Below, piece after piece: positions 10,019-38,489 of a stretch of 64,000 nt of DNA. The stretch is from a phage. Under the pieces are notes generated by a model. That model saw only the letters and a list, made by a program, of their open reading frames with translations, did not search any database and had not been told where the DNA came from. A program made the position numbers and the translations under genes. Positions within the stretch are counted from its first letter, which is position 1. Each line of letters begins with the position of its first letter. The stretch lies in sequence record OZ335964.1. One strand, given 5' to 3'.

Positions 10019-11881
10019 TTACATGTGCTTAACGCGGTTTACCATCTCGGAGTGTTTCCCGTGGTTAAATGGACGCAGATCAACAGATCCAAGATATCCA
10101 CTAACGCGCCGGATAACATTCATCTTTTCCAGATTGTCATTGCCGCAATCAGGACAAACAAAACCAGACTCGGTCGCTCTCATTTCCTTAGTAGATCCGC
10201 ATACATGACATACATCAGAAGGAGTATTAACACCGAAGTAATGCAATTTATCCATTGCATAGTCTACTACAGTTTCAAGACCTTTCAGGTTGTTTTTCAT
10301 GTCTGGGAACTCAACATAAGAGATCATGCCACCGGACGCCAGCCAGTGATAATCTTTCTCAAAGTCGATTTTCTCAAACGGTGTGACTTTCCGGTCTACG
10401 TCAAGATGGAATGAGTTGGTGTACCAGTCTTTATCGGTAGCACCCTTAACAATACCAAATTGCTCTCGATCCAGTCGATTAAATCGATAGCAAAGGCTCT
10501 CGGCTGGCGTACCGTAAAGACTAAACCCAAGTCCGGTTTCGTCCTTCCATTTTTCAGTATAATGACGCAAGATCTTAAGAATATGTTTACCGTATCGCTG
10601 CGCATCTTCCGAATCAAACGGATGAACACCAAACAGGACGCTCAATACCTCATGTAAACCAATATATCCAAGAGAGATACTAGCGCGACCATCTTTCAAC
10701 ACTTCCAAAATTTCATCGTTTTGATGAATACGGAAAAATGCACCTTCTGTATACAGCACAGGAGCAACATTGGCTTTAGCCCCTTTTAAAGCGTCTACGC
10801 GACTCATCAGCGCATCAAAGCAAATAGGCATACGATTAGCTAGCTCTTGTTCGAATAGCTCAATTCTGCGCATTACAGACGCTTTACCAGCACGACGCGC
10901 GGCAATAAGAGCAATACGCGGAAGATTCAGAGTCACAACACCTAAGTTATTACGTCCGTCTAATACTTCTTCGCCTTTCTCATTATGCCACACACCCAGG
11001 AAGCTACGACAACCCATCGGGCTAACCGGAACACTAGATCCAGTGATACTACGGTTATTCTTCGCAGAGATATAATCAGGGTAAAGACGCTTACTAGAAC
11101 ATTCCAATGCAAGTTGCTTAATGTCGTAGTTCGGATCTTCCGGTTTAAGGTTTAATCCTTCTTCTAAGAACATCACCAGCTTAGGAAACACCGGAGTGAT
11201 ACCATCTTTACCTAAACCTTTAGTTCGAACGTTCAGGATCGCTTTCTGAATCAGTTTTTCTTCCCAGCTAGTACCCATACCAAAGGTTAAAGTCACAAAA
11301 GGCGTTTGACCGTTGGTAGAGAACAAAGTGTTGATCTCATATTCCAACGCCTGATATCCGTCTAACGTTTCTTTTTCTGTCTTCTCTTGTGCATAGAGAG
11401 TATCAGCTTTGATTCCGTAGGTTTCGGCATCAGCAAGGTGTTTATGATATGTTTTCTCAACATACGGTGCTAACACCTGATCGATGTTTGCAATTGTGGT
11501 CCCGCCATATTGATGACTTGCCACCTGTGCGATAATTTGAGCGGTTACAGCACAAGCAACGCCGATTGATTTCGGACTTTCGATTTGTGCACTACCCAAT
11601 TTAAAACCATTCTCTAACATGTCTTTGAGATTAACAAGACAGCAGTTAGTAAACGGCATAGCGGGTGCATAATCCATATCATGATAATGAATATCACCGT
11701 CTACATGCGCTTTATAGATGTGCTCAGGTAACACGGTTTTAGCAATCTGTTTAGACACAGCACCAGCAATCAGATCTCGACGTGTCGGGAATGTTCGCGC
11801 GTCTTTGTTCGCGTTCTCTTTGCTTACTTCGTTTTCTTTACCCGTTGCGATCTCTGTAATGTCTTTGATTAGTTTTTCCAT
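10019..11881 (-). CDS. nrdD: anaerobic ribonucleoside-triphosphate reductase NrdD (glycyl radical enzyme)
   Basis: 620 aa; C-terminal RVSGYLG glycyl radical motif and CPDCG zinc site. Confidence 0.9.
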   Translation of the reverse strand: MEKLIKDITEIATGKENEVSKENANKDARTFPTRRDLIAGAVSKQIAKTVLPEHIYKAHVDGDIHYHDMDYAPAMPFTNCCLVNLKDMLENGFKLGSAQIESPKSIGVACAVTAQIIAQVASHQYGGTTIANIDQVLAPYVEKTYHKHLADAETYGIKADTLYAQEKTEKETLDGYQALEYEINTLFSTNGQTPFVTLTFGMGTSWEEKLIQKAILNVRTKGLGKDGITPVFPKLVMFLEEGLNLKPEDPNYDIKQLALECSSKRLYPDYISAKNNRSITGSSVPVSPMGCRSFLGVWHNEKGEEVLDGRNNLGVVTLNLPRIALIAARRAGKASVMRRIELFEQELANRMPICFDALMSRVDALKGAKANVAPVLYTEGAFFRIHQNDEILEVLKDGRASISLGYIGLHEVLSVLFGVHPFDSEDAQRYGKHILKILRHYTEKWKDETGLGFSLYGTPAESLCYRFNRLDREQFGIVKGATDKDWYTNSFHLDVDRKVTPFEKIDFEKDYHWLASGGMISYVEFPDMKNNLKGLETVVDYAMDKLHYFGVNTPSDVCHVCGSTKEMRATESGFVCPDCGNDNLEKMNVIRRVSGYLGSVDLRPFNHGKHSEMVNRVKHM

Positions 11882-23078: not shown

Positions 23079-25217
23079 TTAAGGATTTCGGCCAGGGTAA
23101 TGCTTAAATCGACCGTAACCAGTTTCAATGCTCATATCTCGTTGACGCACAATCGCCCAATAACCGTTGCAGGAATCTTGAAGATATAGATCCTTACCTT
23201 TTAGGAACTCATTAAAAATAGTGATCTGCCAATCATAATAGACCGCATCAGCAAGACTACCCATCCAACCGTGCGGATCTTCCATCAGTTCGACAAGTTC
23301 ATCAATTACCCAATATGGACAAGGGCTAAATTTACCCTTACTAAAATCGCTGAACATAGTAACGATCTTGACTTCCGGTCGAGGCTGATCGGGAATATCT
23401 GGACGTTTGTTAACTACGACTTGCACATATTTTGTGTAGCCTACAATTTCACCTTCATCTAAGTTAGTGTTATTGTTTTTGTCGGCAAATGCAACAAATT
23501 TGTAAACACCAGAATCATTTAATGTTGCATTAGCTTTACGATATACCGGAACACTGGAATCTGCAATAGGTAATTTAATACCACTTTTACTAAATTCATA
23601 GGTCGGCACATAGTTAGATGGCGGTTTAATCATGGTTGCTTCCAGCACCAACGGATCACCCTCAGTAATTTGCACCGGATGCGGACCGTCAAATTCCATA
23701 TTAGGAATTACTTCAACTTTATAGGTTGCACGTCCTGCAATATCATATCCGGTATGCGCACTATGAGGATCTCGGCTAGGACTATCGCGATATTCATGCG
23801 ACCAGATACCATTATGTTCTTTATCCGCCGCATCAGTGATCTTATATTCTTTCGTTTCAATCGGCAATTCTGTTACAAGAACATCGTTTTTCAAAATTGC
23901 TAACGAACGAGTTTGAGTCGGATCATTACTTGCTGGAGGTTCTGGATCAACAATTTTAATAACAATAGGTTCCCCAACCTCAATACCGCTATAATCATGC
24001 TCGACGTCATAGATATCTAACATACGGCGATCATAAAATAACGGGCGAGAAGTTGGAGTTCTCTGCGGATCATCATCACGCGCAGGAGCTACCAACAATT
24101 GCAGGGCTACACTATTATCATATTGCAATTTCTCAAGACTAATACGGTCATAACCAGGATCACCATATTTCTTGCTTTGTAATTGCGTACCACCTAACAT
24201 CCACGTAAAGTAGACATTATTTGTTAATAAACCATAATGTCGGTTCCATGAATTATCAACAGGGGAAACTGGCATATCAATACTAACAGAAGACCCAGAA
24301 GGATAACGAAATTCAATAGCAGAAAAATCTCGGCTAAAAAATTCGTTTTCCTTGACGTTAACGCGGAATCGATGGCGCTGACCTTCCAGATACGATTCAC
24401 TACTACCAGGACCATTTTCAACCTTATAGGAACGAATACAAGCGACATAATCACCTGCATCTGCTTCGGTAGCATGTTTCGTCACATATAAAGTTTTATT
24501 CTTTGATTCATAAACCAAAGTACCATCGCCACGTTCCAGACGATAACGAACTATGGTATGTTCAGCGTCATTTGGGGCATCGTCTTCTACAGTATAATAG
24601 GCAGGTGCATATTTTTGTACATTGAATACAGCTAAATTTTCTCGAATTGTTGCTGTAAACGGATATACAAATTTAACATCACCTGTTTCGTCGCTTAATT
24701 CCATTCGATAAAGACCGGAAAATTCAGGCCATGCGAATTTTGCAATTTTAAATTCACGATGGTCCAATCCCAAATCACCATCTACGGAATCAACTAGACC
24801 ATTATTATAATACAAGTCAACAGAGATATTAGCAGGAATATTACTACGAAAAACAATTTTCGCTTTAAGTTCATCACCAATATTAAATGATGTCGGAGGA
24901 TATACATGTTCAACATATGGATTATCAAATAACTTAAATGTAAAGTTTTCCGTGCCAATATCGATAGAATCACCACTAAATGATGTGTCGCCTAGCGCAT
25001 AACCTCGAACGTTTACAGACCATCCGGTAACATCGTCTTCTTTAACGGAATCCAATGTAAATGTCGGAGAGGCACTTGTTGCTATAATCTGGTCATTTTT
25101 CTTCCAGACATAACCTTTTTTCGGTTTTGTTGAATCAGGGCTTTCATCAACAATACAGCAGCTAAAATCGTGCGGCATCCAAATCATATTATTGACCGTG
25201 GTGTTTACTACTGCCAT
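23079..25217 (-). CDS. large protein with Ig-like domain signatures (possible virion decoration or adhesin)
   Basis: 712 aa; DxGxYxC-type Ig motifs (EADAGDYVACI, LNDSGVYKFVAF); strong AGGAGGATTC RBS; own terminator. Confidence 0.55.
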   Translation of the reverse strand: MAVVNTTVNNMIWMPHDFSCCIVDESPDSTKPKKGYVWKKNDQIIATSASPTFTLDSVKEDDVTGWSVNVRGYALGDTSFSGDSIDIGTENFTFKLFDNPYVEHVYPPTSFNIGDELKAKIVFRSNIPANISVDLYYNNGLVDSVDGDLGLDHREFKIAKFAWPEFSGLYRMELSDETGDVKFVYPFTATIRENLAVFNVQKYAPAYYTVEDDAPNDAEHTIVRYRLERGDGTLVYESKNKTLYVTKHATEADAGDYVACIRSYKVENGPGSSESYLEGQRHRFRVNVKENEFFSRDFSAIEFRYPSGSSVSIDMPVSPVDNSWNRHYGLLTNNVYFTWMLGGTQLQSKKYGDPGYDRISLEKLQYDNSVALQLLVAPARDDDPQRTPTSRPLFYDRRMLDIYDVEHDYSGIEVGEPIVIKIVDPEPPASNDPTQTRSLAILKNDVLVTELPIETKEYKITDAADKEHNGIWSHEYRDSPSRDPHSAHTGYDIAGRATYKVEVIPNMEFDGPHPVQITEGDPLVLEATMIKPPSNYVPTYEFSKSGIKLPIADSSVPVYRKANATLNDSGVYKFVAFADKNNNTNLDEGEIVGYTKYVQVVVNKRPDIPDQPRPEVKIVTMFSDFSKGKFSPCPYWVIDELVELMEDPHGWMGSLADAVYYDWQITIFNEFLKGKDLYLQDSCNGYWAIVRQRDMSIETGYGRFKHYPGRNP

Positions 25218-25984: not shown

Positions 25985-26581
25985 TTAGTGGGTAGATCCA
26001 TCAATAAAATGTTTACGACAAACAGAAATATATTTATCTTCCGCACCAATTTCGATTTGAGCACCATCGCGAATAACATTACCATCTTTATCTACGCGAA
26101 GGACCATAGTTGCTTTCTTTCCACAATGACAAATACCCTTCATTTCGACCAGTTTATCAGCAAATGCCATCAATGCCGCAGATCCTTCAAATAGATTGCC
26201 CTGAAAGTCGGTGCGAAGGCCATAGCACAGTACAGGGATATTTGCATCATCAACAAGCGCACACAAGCCTAAAACATGCTCTTTAGTCATAAATTGGGCT
26301 TCATCTACAAATACAGCATCAGGACGCCATCGATCCGATCTACGCTTACCTAGTGATTCACGATAAACTAAGTCGAAAAGATCATCCGATTTAGTGAACG
26401 TAATAGCCGGAGCACTTAGACCAATTCGGGAAACAACTTCACTATCTGAATCACGATTATCAATCGCTGGTTTAAGAATTAATACTCGCATATCACGTTC
26501 GGTATAGTTATAAGCACTTTGTAACAGGGAAGTTGATTTGCCAGCGTTCATAGATGCATAGTAGAAATATAGTTGCGCCAT
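25985..26581 (-). CDS. tk: thymidine kinase
   Basis: 198 aa; MNAGKST P-loop, CHCGKKAT zinc site. Confidence 0.9.
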   Translation of the reverse strand: MAQLYFYYASMNAGKSTSLLQSAYNYTERDMRVLILKPAIDNRDSDSEVVSRIGLSAPAITFTKSDDLFDLVYRESLGKRRSDRWRPDAVFVDEAQFMTKEHVLGLCALVDDANIPVLCYGLRTDFQGNLFEGSAALMAFADKLVEMKGICHCGKKATMVLRVDKDGNVIRDGAQIEIGAEDKYISVCRKHFIDGSTH

Positions 26582-26874
26582 TAATTAATCTCCAAAAATC
26601 CAGCAAGACCTAAACCAACATAAACCCAGATGCAAAGGAAAAAGAAGCAAACACCCATAGCAAAGATAAATCCGCGTAGTGTCTTTGGATAACCTACCCA
26701 ATATTCCCGACCATCTTCTAACCGGATCAGTTTATTGCCTTGAGAGTCCATGTCAATCACAACATGCTTATTTCGAGATTGCAATAGATATTGTTTTACA
26801 ATCTCTACACCCGCCATAATAACAATAACGAAATTAAAAGTCCACATAACAAGGTTAATGATAGTCTCAAGCAT
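26581..26874 (-). CDS. small membrane protein
   Basis: 97 aa with two hydrophobic helices. Confidence 0.5.
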   Translation of the reverse strand: MLETIINLVMWTFNFVIVIMAGVEIVKQYLLQSRNKHVVIDMDSQGNKLIRLEDGREYWVGYPKTLRGFIFAMGVCFFFLCIWVYVGLGLAGFLEIN

Positions 26875-27085
26875 TTTCTATCACCTCCACCCAATCAGGC
26901 GTTTCCTGAAATACTCCTTCGCCTTCGTGGTGGATGCATCCTTTATTGCTACAATACATCCACCAATCCCACATTCCCCACGGTAAACGCTGCATATCGT
27001 CGTTACAGCAAGTGAAGATGATAGGCCAACCACATCTAACACATCGGCAGTTTTCTTTCATGTGAGCGGTATTAGGCTTCTTCAT
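26867..27085 (-). CDS. Cys/Trp-rich small protein (putative zinc binding)
   Basis: ATG at 27085 with GGAG RBS; CRCVRCGW...CC...C. Confidence 0.45.
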   Translation of the reverse strand: MKKPNTAHMKENCRCVRCGWPIIFTCCNDDMQRLPWGMWDWWMYCSNKGCIHHEGEGVFQETPDWVEVIENA

Positions 27086-27276
27086 AGATGACTCCAATAT
27101 AATCGACATTTACATTTAGGGCAATGCGGTTCTTTAATATAATACCCGTCTGTCTTTGGAACACTAACAGGAGCGGTTTTTATATTGTATTCAGTGAAAC
27201 AACGAAAACAAGTTACGTTTTCTACAGACTGACGTTTCACCCAATCACCGGAATAGAGATCATTTTTATTTGTCAT
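27082..27276 (-). CDS. Cys-rich small protein (zinc-ribbon-like)
   Basis: ATG at 27276; CFRCF...HCPKCKC. Confidence 0.45.
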   Translation of the reverse strand: MTNKNDLYSGDWVKRQSVENVTCFRCFTEYNIKTAPVSVPKTDGYYIKEPHCPKCKCRLYWSHL

Positions 27277-27721
27277 ATTCAACCACCACAATGTTAATGT
27301 CTGGAGTAGCAATATTAATGATCTCTTCTACACATTCCCACTCAAGGCCACCGATACCGCAACCGATTTTAGGAATATAGAAAGGCTGTATAGCACCTTC
27401 AAAAACATCATTGATAGTCTCAAATCCTTTCAGGATAGCACCATATTCAGCATTTGGACCCGGTCGGAATTGGGTATAGAGATTCACCCCGCACCAGTTA
27501 TAACCATTAACTTGATGCGTCCAGACACTAAACCCACCCAGCTTTTCTACCTTACCGCGAGAAGTTTGCTTGTCAATTTCTAACGCTTGCGGGAACTCTT
27601 TCGCGATATCCGCAGCAATACCAGCGCCCATAGTATGAAAACAATTACAACCATGAATTAAATGACCGTTTCCTTGTTTAAACAGGGCGATGAGATCGCC
27701 CTTTACAGTATCAATAATCAT
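27266..27721 (-). CDS. macro-domain-like protein (putative ADP-ribose binding/processing)
   Basis: 151 aa; HGCNCFHTMGAGIAADI resembles the macro-domain N..N...G.G(V/I) loop. Confidence 0.55.
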   Translation of the reverse strand: MIIDTVKGDLIALFKQGNGHLIHGCNCFHTMGAGIAADIAKEFPQALEIDKQTSRGKVEKLGGFSVWTHQVNGYNWCGVNLYTQFRPGPNAEYGAILKGFETINDVFEGAIQPFYIPKIGCGIGGLEWECVEEIINIATPDINIVVVEYDK

Positions 27722-27736
27722 AATATAAACCTCTCA

Positions 27737-28096
27737 TTAGTCACGGGAAGACAACCCAGCCATAAAACGGCTTAAAAGCGTGTCACGATAAGCAAAGCAT
27801 AATTGCTTATCAGGGGCAGTATCACACAGGTTGCGTTTTGTTTTAGCAAAGCTGGCAATACTCAGATCCCACGCTCGATTTTTTCGTTTTTCATCTCGAC
27901 CTTGTTTGTATGCCTCGTCAAGTTCAAGTGCGATAAAATCGCTACACATGTTATCATCATCACAGAAGGTTTTAATGATCTTTTTGTTGATCTCAAATCC
28001 TTTGTATTCGACCTTTGGATAAGGGCGCTCATTACTAGCAAGCGCACCAGCCGAGAACATCATAGCAATCATAGCAATTATTGTCAACTTTTTCAT
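27737..28096 (-). CDS. secreted protein of unknown function
   Basis: 119 aa; signal peptide MKKLTIIAMIAMMFSAGALA. Confidence 0.5.
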   Translation of the reverse strand: MKKLTIIAMIAMMFSAGALASNERPYPKVEYKGFEINKKIIKTFCDDDNMCSDFIALELDEAYKQGRDEKRKNRAWDLSIASFAKTKRNLCDTAPDKQLCFAYRDTLLSRFMAGLSSRD

Positions 28097-28103
28097 ATAT
28101 TCC

Positions 28104-28694
28104 TCAATAGCGTTTAGTTTTAAGAATGCCTTTACTCTTTAGATGGTTAGCCTTTTTTAGTACGTCATCAGCATAACCCAATCCGGCTTTATAGTTCCAT
28201 CCAGCATTGTAAGAAGCTAGCGCGAGTCGGATATTACCGTTTCGAACATCCAGCCAGTATGCTAACTCATCCATCGCGTAGAATGCAGAAACCTCGCGAT
28301 TCATGATAAATTTGATAGTCTGGCGATCACTCATTTTAACACCGCGCTTTGCATTTTTCGCTTTCACCGTTTTAAGGTAATTTTGAAATAATCCATAAGC
28401 ATGATGATTTTTCTTTGGTGCTAAGTTTGCACCCGCGCTTGATTCTTGCCATGCTATACCCGCCAGGATGTGGCCTAAACCCTTTCCGTCATAGCGAATA
28501 TTCGGATGGTCATTTTTCAACTTACCGCTTTTCTCGAATTGTTCGCCATATTGATAGGCGAAATGTAAATTATCTAGTTGGTGTGCTGTAAAGTTGTCTA
28601 TCGGCGCTTTTTTGATCGGTGCGCTAGTCGATGCGTGTGTAGCACCAACGGCTAGTGACAGACTCAATACTATCGCTTTTAGAACTTTTAACAT
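28104..28694 (-). CDS. secreted lytic transglycosylase (SLT domain)
   Basis: 196 aa; signal peptide; SLT motifs GIAWQESS, AYGLFQ, ALASYNAG. Confidence 0.75.
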   Translation of the reverse strand: MLKVLKAIVLSLSLAVGATHASTSAPIKKAPIDNFTAHQLDNLHFAYQYGEQFEKSGKLKNDHPNIRYDGKGLGHILAGIAWQESSAGANLAPKKNHHAYGLFQNYLKTVKAKNAKRGVKMSDRQTIKFIMNREVSAFYAMDELAYWLDVRNGNIRLALASYNAGWNYKAGLGYADDVLKKANHLKSKGILKTKRY

Positions 28695-30759: not shown

Positions 30760-30801
30760 AATTAAACCCTCAGTTGATTAAGAGATTGCATCATATCATC
30801 A

Positions 30802-31945: not shown

Positions 31946-32335
31946 TTATTTTGGATCTGGGTATTTGCTGTGTGGCAATTGTAGATGAGGACCATCTTTA
32001 AACGATACCCAATCCCCACCCCATTCAACAGGAACACCCAATTCTCGACCAGCTTGTTTAAATGCATCAGCGATCATGCGGTAATATTTCATGTTCCATG
32101 TATCCTTATCTTTCGGATACGCTACAACGTCAACCGCGAAACCGTGAAGATGACGAGATTTCATAGTCTTAGATTTACCTTCCGCAACATATTTCTTTTG
32201 CGTTTCTAGACTACGCACACCTTCCGTAATACCAAAATCGACCGGAGTCAGTTCTAATGCACGATGAACGACTTTTACCAGGTCTGGATGTACACCAACA
32301 AGCCGATCTTTGCTTCTTTGAGATAATTTAAACAT
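31946..32335 (-). CDS. peptidase M15 (LAS metallopeptidase, VanY-like) - probable endolysin
   Basis: 129 aa; SRHLHGFAVDV...DGPHLQL zinc ligands; occupies the position of T4 e. Confidence 0.7.
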   Translation of the reverse strand: MFKLSQRSKDRLVGVHPDLVKVVHRALELTPVDFGITEGVRSLETQKKYVAEGKSKTMKSRHLHGFAVDVVAYPKDKDTWNMKYYRMIADAFKQAGRELGVPVEWGGDWVSFKDGPHLQLPHSKYPDPK

Positions 32336-36661: not shown

Positions 36662-36859
36662 TCATAGATCACAGAGCCATCTTAAAGCACCACATAAAGC
36701 GAGCAGAATACTAGGTATAAAAGAGACCAAAACAAGTTCGCAAAAATCATCTAAGGTAACACCGGAATAGCTACCTACTGTAACAACACCGATCATCAGA
36801 CACAGAAAGAAAACAAATGCAATCAGAAACAAAGTATTGCTAAACAGTTTAGTGATCAT
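36662..36859 (-). CDS. small hydrophobic membrane protein
   Basis: ATG at 36859 with GGGGTG RBS; longer track ORF would overlap upstream gene. Confidence 0.4.
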   Translation of the reverse strand: MITKLFSNTLFLIAFVFFLCLMIGVVTVGSYSGVTLDDFCELVLVSFIPSILLALCGALRWLCDL

Positions 36860-37052
36860 TAGACACCCCACGACGATCAATTTCAAAAACTTTTTTATCA
36901 TCAACGAAGCATGTCACAACTGCCTCGTTGACTTCCGCAAATTGTTGTGTTACCCACTTAAGGTCAGATCGAAACAATGTTTTGTTAATAACAAATGTTT
37001 TACCGCTCTTATCCTTACCCATAAATTTTGCTTTAACCATATCCAATTCCAT
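36849..37052 (-). CDS. hypothetical protein
   Basis: 67 aa soluble; AAGGTGATAAT leader. Confidence 0.45.
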   Translation of the reverse strand: MELDMVKAKFMGKDKSGKTFVINKTLFRSDLKWVTQQFAEVNEAVVTCFVDDKKVFEIDRRGVSNDH

Positions 37053-37770: not shown

Positions 37771-38235
37771 TTACAGTTTGGTCGTCCACTCCAGGTCTAG
37801 ATCTTCGACATACTCATGAGATCGGACAATCTCTAAATCGAACTCTAGGTCAGTGCCAAATTTACGCGCACCAACATCATAAGAAAGCGTGATATGCGGT
37901 ACATATTCAGGATAATCCCACGTCGCGCCTAAAGCAGTTCCGATATCGTGTCTGAATTGCATGTAGTCGCTTTCAAATGCCAGCACAAGTGCATTAGTAC
38001 CGGATTGAGTTTCAAACACTTTCAGATGACACAGAGAGCCTAAGAACTTTTCCCCTTCTTCTGGGATAAACGGAACATAGACACGAGAATATAAGATAGT
38101 GCTATGAAGTTTATCACGAGGAACGGCATTAGGCAGATCGTAGAACTCCTGCAATTTTTCAATGCGGTCTAGTGTATCCTCAGTGAATTTAACCGCCGCA
38201 TATGTACCTTTAACGGATTCTCGAAACGGGGTCAT
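37771..38235 (-). CDS. 57B: 2H-phosphoesterase-fold protein, Acb1 (gene 57B)-like cyclic-oligonucleotide phosphodiesterase
   Basis: two H-x-T/S motifs (KLHSTIL, VPHITLS); position immediately before 57A and gp1 as T4 57B; ATG at 38235 after GGAGG. Confidence 0.65.
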   Translation of the reverse strand: MTPFRESVKGTYAAVKFTEDTLDRIEKLQEFYDLPNAVPRDKLHSTILYSRVYVPFIPEEGEKFLGSLCHLKVFETQSGTNALVLAFESDYMQFRHDIGTALGATWDYPEYVPHITLSYDVGARKFGTDLEFDLEIVRSHEYVEDLDLEWTTKL

Positions 38236-38237
38236 AA

Positions 38238-38489
38238 TCAAGCCTCCGTGATCAGTTCTACTTCCTCTTCTGCGTCTTCGCCTTTAGGGAGAAGTGATTT
38301 CACTTCTTCGACAATAGCATCAAGGGAAACAGTGCCGTTTTCGTCTGGCTGAATACCCAGAATGCGTACCAGTTCCATCAATACACGCTCACGATCTTTC
38401 AGTTGGCCTTCTAAGAATGCGGCCTTTTCTTGAGTGTCAAACAGACGGACTTTCAGGACATTAATCATTTGTTCATGCTGATTGGACAT
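38238..38489 (-). CDS. 57A: tail fibre assembly chaperone gp57A-like
   Basis: 83 aa acidic coiled-coil protein directly before gp1, as T4 57A. Confidence 0.55.
   Translation of the reverse strand: MSNQHEQMINVLKVRLFDTQEKAAFLEGQLKDRERVLMELVRILGIQPDENGTVSLDAIVEEVKSLLPKGEDAEEEVELITEA

Follow-up and report, generated by a model that had tools for sequence, protein, structure and literature searches.

The window, a 64,000-nucleotide stretch of phage DNA (sequence record OZ335964.1), is that of a Krischvirus of the RB49/JSE-like type with Shigella phage JK32 as the nearest relative. An intact open reading frame of 151 codons, starting with ATG and ending with TAA, is encoded on the minus strand and is designated here tk.4 or adfM (Table 1). 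The DNA of the gene is 98-99% identical to the tk.4 genes of 58 Krischvirus phages from E. coli and Shigella hosts. The start codon is separated by 15 nt from the stop codon of the preceding gene vs, and the putative Shine-Dalgarno sequence lies inside this gap, 8 nt 5' of the ATG. At the opposite end of the gene, the TAA is part of an 11-nt overlap with the ATG of the following small open reading frame. The overlap and the short gap are typical of a tightly packed phage operon. A candidate promoter, located within the 5' end of vs, would direct transcription into tk.4, and sigma-70-like matches are enriched in the minus-strand block of early-type genes (31 versus 18.8 ± 4.6 in shuffled sequences). 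The promoter calls are consensus pattern matches, none of which was used as evidence of expression timing; the tk.4 product of the window is presumed to be expressed early.

The order tk … tk.4–vs–vs.1–regB on one strand is shared by the window and T4. The encoded protein aligned end to end with T4 Tk.4 over 153 columns with 44% identity (E 1e-44). The full-length identity and the collinear neighbours identify the gene as the positional ortholog of T4 tk.4. Between tk and tk.4 the window carries three small genes that are unrelated to tk.1-tk.3 of T4. The gene is annotated in phage JSE as 'tk.4, phosphatase, contains A1pp phosphatase motif', and a phosphatase label is likewise carried by T4 and by PHROG 335.

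Table 1. Positions in the window of tk.4/adfM, its ligand-site segments, local signals and neighbouring genes.
Feature	Coordinates	Strand	Basis
tk.4/adfM coding sequence, 151 aa, single macrodomain	27266..27721, including stop	-	ORF, Pfam, AlphaFold2, Foldseek, identity to T4 Tk.4
Loop 1, residues 23-39, HGCNCFHTMGAGIAADI	27605..27655	-	conservation in 121 sequences; alignments
N80-L-Y-T-Q84 strand (N-x-Y-T-Q)	27470..27484	-	Q84 conservation; TARG1, DarG, BT1257 and SCO6735 alignments
Q84 codon, CAA	27470-27472	-	direct sequence reading
Loop 2, residues 117-125 (PKIGCGIGG), glycine-rich, predicted to bind diphosphate	27347..27373	-	conservation; TARG1 alignment 'PRIGCGLDRLQW'
Putative Shine-Dalgarno sequence, GAGAGG	27730..27735	-	sequence reading
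Candidate sigma-70-type (early) promoter, TTGACA-17-TATGAT with TG extension	28059..28087	-	consensus scan, 11/12
tk (thymidine kinase), downstream synteny anchor	25985..26581	-	54% identity to T4 Tk, E 1e-69; JSE annotation
vs (valyl-tRNA synthetase modifier), upstream anchor	27737..28096	-	blastp to T4 Vs, E 1e-7; T4/JSE annotation
vs.1 (upstream, past vs)	28104..28694		52% identity to T4 Vs.1, E 4e-55
regB	beyond vs.1		41% identity to T4 RegB, E 3e-33

Macro fold and class of the protein

The protein scored 27.9 bits with the Pfam Macro family (PF01661; E 2.4e-6), above the gathering cut-off of 22 bits, over model positions 1-118 of 118, and matched PHROG 335 with an E value of 2.8e-61. The AlphaFold2 model, obtained with an alignment of 45 homologs, had a pLDDT of 96.4 and a pTM of 0.91. 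A Foldseek comparison of the model with the PDB returned 205 matches at E<=0.001, and the best 50 of the 205 were macrodomains or designed proteins. The top match was human TARG1 (E 5e-11, TM 0.77-0.83, 28-29% identity), the others being Poa1p, DarG from T. aquaticus and M. tuberculosis (TM 0.76-0.78), BT1257 and SCO6735, with TM scores of 0.70-0.83 overall. Among the matches listed, macrodomains of coronaviruses and alphaviruses ranked below the TARG1/DarG class with TM scores of 0.62-0.68. The sequence comparisons were in agreement with the structural ones. A profile made from 36 members of the Tk.4 family retrieved BT1257, TARG1, SCO6735 and DarG from the PDB at E values of 6.5e-16 (BT1257, the best) to 1e-12, and Poa1p at 4.8e-12, while the best match obtained with the single sequence was DarG (E 6.9e-8). 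All PDB sequence matches with E<1e-4 were to the ALC1/TARG1-like class (TARG1, DarG, SCO6735, Poa1p and BT1257).

These results confirm that the macrodomain match is well above chance level and, at the level of the predicted structure, that the protein adopts the three-layer alpha/beta/alpha macro fold. The class is the ALC1/TARG1-like one, as opposed to the MacroD, PARG or viral Mac1 types. A preliminary description of the DNA had called the product macro-domain-like from the letters of the sequence and had proposed structure prediction as a check; the claim is borne out by the Pfam score above the cut-off, the confident model and the Foldseek matches to TARG1 and DarG. The phosphate-binding loop quoted there, HGCNCFHTMGAGIAADI, forms the first of the two ligand loops of the fold and leads from the strand of residues 20-26 to the helix of residues 34-42.

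Ligand loops and residue 84

Within loop 1, residues H23, G24, N26, C27, M31, G34 and A36 are invariant in the family. In the set of 121 family sequences with 40-99% identity, these residues and D50, N80, Y82, T83, Q84, P117, I119, G120 and G122 are invariant or nearly so; in loop 2 the last four are invariant and G125 is more than 90% conserved. Both ligand loops are conserved, and ADP-ribose is the predicted ligand. Loop 2 and the N80-x-Y-T-Q84 strand, which had not been mentioned in the preliminary description, are conserved as strongly as loop 1.

Residue 84 is Gln in 118 of the 121 Tk.4 family homologs. It aligned with Lys84 of TARG1 in the profile alignment, with a Gln of BT1257, with the Lys of the 'FPTK' motif in M. 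tuberculosis DarG, and with residue 105 of the 5E3B chain, which is Gln85 of SCO6735 once the 20-residue tag is subtracted. The SCO6735 residue was identified by superposition as the structural equivalent of TARG1 K84 and DarG K80, and its replacement in Q85A or Q85E abolished activity (PMC9411070). Pairwise alignment with PhiKZ gp104 by BLASTP or MAFFT displaces the catalytic strand by two residues; the equivalence of Q84 with K78 of the PhiKZ protein was therefore taken from the mutually consistent DarG, TARG1 and SCO6735 alignments together with the published structure-based alignment of TARG1, DarG and SCO6735 (PMC9411070). The column of the TARG1 catalytic Asp125 is occupied by G124 in the window protein. 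The segment H23-G-C-N26 aligned with 'HVCN' of SCO6735, and N26 aligned with the loop Asn of DarG and hence with N23 of PhiKZ AdfM, mutation of which reduced activity (PMC13309987).

According to these alignments, the window protein and T4 Tk.4 bear the Lys-less His/Asn/Gln signature of SCO6735, unlike that of DarG. One new point is that the Tk.4 family has an invariant Gln in the column that the catalytic Lys occupies in DarG, TARG1 and PhiKZ AdfM. TARG1-type chemistry was rejected in view of the missing K84/D125 dyad, which is replaced by Q84 and G124.

Relation to known macrodomains

The possibility that the protein is DarG proper was considered and rejected. DarG was the only match in PADLOC (E 5.7e-14, compared with 1.3e-9 for T4 Tk.4), covering positions 3-141 of 329, and antitoxin_DarG (NF048014) was the only match in NCBIfam, covering the macrodomain part at positions 2-141 of 338. 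The latter score was 47.8 bits, far below the 250-bit cut-off of the equivalog. The coverage of the NCBIfam and PADLOC models revealed no C-terminal DarT-binding domain in the 151-residue protein, the catalytic lysine of DarG (K80 in T. aquaticus) is missing, with Q84 in that column, and no darT gene is found beside tk.4, the neighbours being vs and a gene for a phage zinc-binding-domain protein. Rejection was based on these four findings. The window protein is an orphan macrodomain that resembles the enzymatic half of DarG and stands outside the DarG family. It has the loop-1 Asn in common with the DarG (DarG2) macrodomain (PDB 5M3I, 5M31/5M3E, 7OMU), and its substrate is predicted to be the same, thymidine-ADPr made by DarT2; it differs in having Gln in place of the catalytic Lys80 and in originating from a lytic phage.

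T4 Tk.4, now AdfM (anti-DarT factor Macrodomain), is likewise a single macrodomain of ~150 residues in the slot between tk and vs. The HGCNCFHTMG loop, the NLYTQ motif and the P-x-IG-x-G loop are common to both proteins and both match DarG in PADLOC, although 56% of the residues are different. SCO6735 of Streptomyces coelicolor (PDB 5E3B), a thymidine-ADPr-DNA hydrolase, is of the same class and fold with the same His-x-x-Asn and Gln signature and, like the window protein, is not fused to a DarT-binding domain. The identity is ~23%, and SCO6735 is a longer protein with an extended mobile loop (the window protein is 30 residues shorter than the tagged 5E3B chain) encoded on a bacterial chromosome, whereas the window protein is phage-encoded. 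The lysines implicated in the contact of SCO6735 with DNA have no counterpart here, K34 being aligned with A33 and K89 lying in a 5-residue insertion that is missing. BT1257 of Bacteroides thetaiotaomicron (PDB 2FG1/2AFC) also has the His…Asn…Gln signature; it is a product of structural genomics to which no function has been assigned, and adds no functional information. Human TARG1/OARD1 (PDB 4J5R/4J5S) resembles the window protein in the His of loop 1 and in the motifs MGAGIA and PRIGCG, but differs in the catalytic dyad and in having Ser at the position of N26. TARG1 is also able to remove thymidine-ADPr (PMC9411070).

PhiKZ gp104, the AdfM of the chimalliviruses, is a further phage orphan macrodomain directed against DarTG2 that is of the same class and keeps the loop-1 Asn. 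It is only 26% identical to the window protein (E 1e-6) and belongs to the DarG clade, with a score of 90.7 bits to M. tuberculosis DarG, the FPTK motif with K78, and no His in loop 1. During infection PhiKZ AdfM enters the phage nucleus by import, a structure that phages of the window's type do not have. PhiKZ gp104 matches DarG structures alone, whereas the Tk.4 family is approximately equidistant from DarG, TARG1, BT1257 and SCO6735. These matches and the low identity suggest that the name AdfM spans two macrodomain lineages, one of the Tk.4 type and one of the PhiKZ type, a modest new point drawn from sequence comparison.

Relatives of Tk.4 were detected by tblastn in 2,783 of 50,697 phage records. 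The phages include T-even-like phages, Vequintavirus, Felixounavirus and other groups, and their hosts include Escherichia, Klebsiella, Salmonella, Pseudomonas, Vibrio, Acinetobacter, Aeromonas and further genera. Beyond Krischvirus, the closest proteins are those of Vequintavirus with 68-69% identity, compared with 44-52% for the syntenic T-even orthologs. Since the Vequintavirus copies are closer than the T-even orthologs and lie in an unrelated gene neighbourhood, the results suggest lateral exchange between Krischvirus and Vequintavirus. A tentative view, somewhat less probable than its converse, is that the Tk.4-type AdfM is a separate Lys-less, SCO6735-like lineage recruited independently of the PhiKZ type, with substrates that may be broader than those of DarG and include protein- or RNA-linked ADP-ribose. 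If this view is correct, phages took up two mechanistically different macrodomains for one counter-defence.

Predicted role against DarTG2

Mutants of T4 lacking AdfA and AdfN were still resistant to DarTG2, and a further factor was predicted (PMC11825919). When a T4 transposon library was screened on a host with DarTG2, only tk.4 emerged as a significant hit; a clean tk.4 knock-out was sensitised to DarTG2, and the gene, which is dispensable in the absence of DarTG2, was renamed adfM (bioRxiv 10.1101/2025.11.20.689424). The evidence in this November 2025 preprint is genetic, without enzymology. In vitro, PhiKZ gp104 takes ADP-ribose off thymidine modified by DarT2, and it shields chimalliviruses from DarTG2 (PMC13309987). 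SCO6735 efficiently strips thymidine-ADPr made by DarT and rescues cells from DarT (PMC9411070). The preliminary description had proposed that a phage macrodomain could reverse host defences based on ADP-ribosylation, and this proposal is supported by the macro fold, the eraser relatives and the orthology with T4 tk.4. Plating on DarTG-containing hosts, also proposed there, has already been reported for the ortholog, T4 tk.4 being required on DarTG2 hosts (bioRxiv 10.1101/2025.11.20.689424).

The window protein, the Krischvirus ortholog of T4 Tk.4/AdfM, likely removes DarT2-made ADP-ribose from phage DNA in a Gln-assisted reaction, and the activity and role of the relatives would hold for the window protein itself. 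The identity to T4 Tk.4 of only 44% counts against the transfer of function, as do the missing catalytic Lys of DarG and TARG1, the missing Asp of TARG1 and the lack of conservation of the SCO6735 lysines K34 and K89. By sequence scores, the Tk.4 family appears no clearer in its nearness to DarG than to TARG1, BT1257 and Poa1p, and thus the substrate specificity is not readable from homology. A search of the literature found no report of RB49 or any other Krischvirus on DarTG hosts. The presence of relatives in so many phage records and host genera could indicate a role beyond DarTG2.

In the proposed mechanism, the free-standing single macrodomain would be produced from the block of early genes that has regB/vs on one side and tk on the other. 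In a host with DarTG2, DarT2 would ADP-ribosylate thymidines in the single-stranded replicating phage DNA and block replication. The macrodomain would bind the ADP-ribose between loop 1 (residues 23-36) and loop 2 (residues 117-125), both glycine-rich, and hydrolyse the bond between ribose and thymine, so that unmodified DNA is regained. The reaction probably follows the SCO6735 type of chemistry, which operates without a catalytic Lys or Asp; Q84, predicted to be essential, would together with H23 and N26 place the distal ribose for water-mediated cleavage, as proposed for SCO6735.

Two other enzymatic activities were weighed against removal of ADP-ribose from DNA. The protein could be a de-ADP-ribosylase of the TARG1 type acting on Glu/Asp-linked ADP-ribose of proteins of the phage or the host; it might, for instance, modulate the Alt/ModA/ModB transferases of the phage or counter host toxins that ADP-ribosylate proteins. 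TARG1 is the best structural match, and SCO6735, with the same His/Asn/Gln signature, also cleaves protein-linked ADPr (PMC9411070). The preliminary description had remarked that T4-type phages encode ADP-ribosyltransferases of their own; a link to Alt/Mod enzymes found no support in the analysis. These enzymes target arginine, and the linkage formed is undone by enzymes of the ARH/DraG type; the arginine-ADP-ribose linkage is not known to be reversed by macrodomains. Furthermore, both residues of the TARG1 dyad are replaced, and T4 tk.4, the single screen hit with DarTG2, is dispensable without it. Protein de-ADP-ribosylation as the main function is consequently considered distinctly unlikely, although a protein-linked activity could accompany the activity on DNA as a secondary one, by analogy with SCO6735. 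Even less probable, and very unlikely, is the historical annotation as an ADP-ribose-1''-phosphate phosphatase, or any other Poa1p-like function in processing free ADP-ribose metabolites. The annotation is found in JSE, T4 and PHROG 335 ('phosphatase; A1pp motif'), Poa1p is among the top matches (profile E 4.8e-12, Foldseek E 1.6e-9), and the 'H-x-C-N-C' loop is Poa1p-like, the Poa1p mutants H23A and S30A being known from titles of PDB entries. The fit to Poa1p is nonetheless poorer (TM 0.65-0.71, rmsd 4.7 Å) than that to TARG1 and DarG (TM 0.77-0.83, rmsd 2.6-2.9 Å), and the phenotype of the T4 ortholog is specific to DarTG2. The compound Appr-1''-p derives from tRNA splicing of the Tpt1 type; the Pnkp/Rnl1 repair of T4-type phages leaves no 2'-phosphate junction, so that we know of no source of substrate for an Appr-1''-p phosphatase. 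The database label, a homology transfer from A1pp/Poa1p, was judged unlikely on this ground and that of the weaker structural fit to Poa1p.

Neutralisation of DarT2 mainly by stoichiometric binding of the toxin instead of catalysis is highly improbable. The catalytically dead Q85A variant of SCO6735 still inhibits DarT in vitro (PMC9411070), and AdfB of phage ICP1 binds DarT directly (PMC11481870). The C-terminal domain by which DarG binds DarT is, however, missing in the window protein, and the strict conservation of H23, N26, Q84 and the two glycine loops in homologs of 40-99% identity indicates a ligand or catalytic site and not a toxin-specific surface. The least probable of the explanations, with barely any weight, is that the protein acts on other defence chemistry derived from ADP-ribose or NAD, such as guanine-ADPr made by DarT1, ADP-ribosylated RNA or signalling molecules derived from ADPR. 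Macrodomains are chemically versatile, and the family occurs in ~5.5% of phage records from many hosts. Against this, homology provided no signal toward such substrates, and in T4 it is AdfN, a NADAR protein, and not tk.4, that counters DarTG1 (PMC11825919; bioRxiv 10.1101/2025.11.20.689424).

The preferred reading, removal of ADP-ribose from DNA by a Krischvirus AdfM, adds no new principle, since phage macrodomains acting against DarTG2 are already known from T4 (tk.4/AdfM) and PhiKZ (AdfM). DarTG is a widespread toxin-antitoxin defence in which ADP-ribosylation of DNA stops phage replication, and knowing which phages bear an eraser helps in predicting host range, including that of Krischvirus in phage therapy and biocontrol. 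The mechanistic by-product is the assignment to the T4/Krischvirus type of a Gln-type site as in SCO6735, not the Lys site of DarG. Because of this difference, mutagenesis or inhibitor work on 'AdfM' should not presume that the mechanisms are alike in both phage families.

Gene content relative to phage JSE

Comparison with the annotated Krischvirus genome JSE revealed three sites at which JSE genes are missing from the window. The homing endonuclease that splits nrdD in JSE is lacking, and therefore nrdD is probably uninterrupted. Also without counterparts are the JSE homing endonuclease adjoining nrdC.11 and the hypothetical gene EpJSE_00105. The 712-aa ORF was found in only 6 phage records, with 99.5% identity to the copy of Shigella phage JK32 and 75-77% to those of the five other records, results indicating that the window is probably JK32-like. 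Family matches to the ORF are limited to weak ones in its C-terminal part, of the Ig-like and 'Hoc-like head decoration' types; the product is possibly a surface or decoration protein.

Collinearity with JSE places putative counterparts of dmd and 57B in the window, which therefore probably harbours, in addition to tk.4, several genes that act against host defences. The dmd product is an antitoxin-like inhibitor of RnlA/LsoA. The product of T4 57B is the anti-CBASS nuclease Acb1 (HIDEN-SEQ preprint).

Positions of features in the window and of related genes in other phages
Feature	Position	Strand	Remarks
Sites of missing JSE genes	~11002-11012; ~30772-30789; ~31961-31985		
712-aa ORF	23079..25217	-	~2.1 kb; only ~215 bp at same place in JSE
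Three small ORFs	26581..27276	-	between tk and tk.4
Candidate sigma-70 promoter	28059..28087	-	TTGACA-17-TATGAT, TG extension; 11/12 consensus match
Putative dmd and 57B	36849..37052; 37771..38241	-	collinearity with JSE
Vequintavirus Tk.4 relatives	HdK5 L006:3001-3459; P0006 (phage Bas59)		
PhiKZ gp104	L004:22518-23006		

Surroundings of tk.4

The three small ORFs that separate tk.4 from tk are unrelated to tk.1-tk.3 of T4. One encodes a 97-aa hydrophobic protein (phrog_16027), and the products of the other two are rich in Cys and match PF23895 (E 9e-34) and PF23903 (E 1e-23), Pfam families of the 'Phage zinc binding domain' kind. An 11-nt overlap between the last of the three and the stop of tk.4 suggests that the two genes are translationally coupled. 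The candidate sigma-70 promoter lies within the first codons of vs and points to tk.4. Promoter-like sites are enriched in this gene block (31 versus 18.8 ± 4.6 in shuffles) and are mostly on the minus strand.

Relationships of the macrodomain protein

The name AdfM has been given in the literature to two phage proteins, T4 Tk.4 and PhiKZ gp104, whose sequences are only 26% identical and whose catalytic position is occupied by Gln in the former and Lys in the latter. The shared name hides two lineages. Outside Krischvirus, the closest relatives of Tk.4 are Vequintavirus proteins with 68-69% identity, whereas the syntenic T-even orthologs are more distant (44-52%). Since the Vequintavirus copies are the closer ones yet reside in a different gene neighbourhood, the macrodomain gene appears to have been exchanged laterally among groups of phages.
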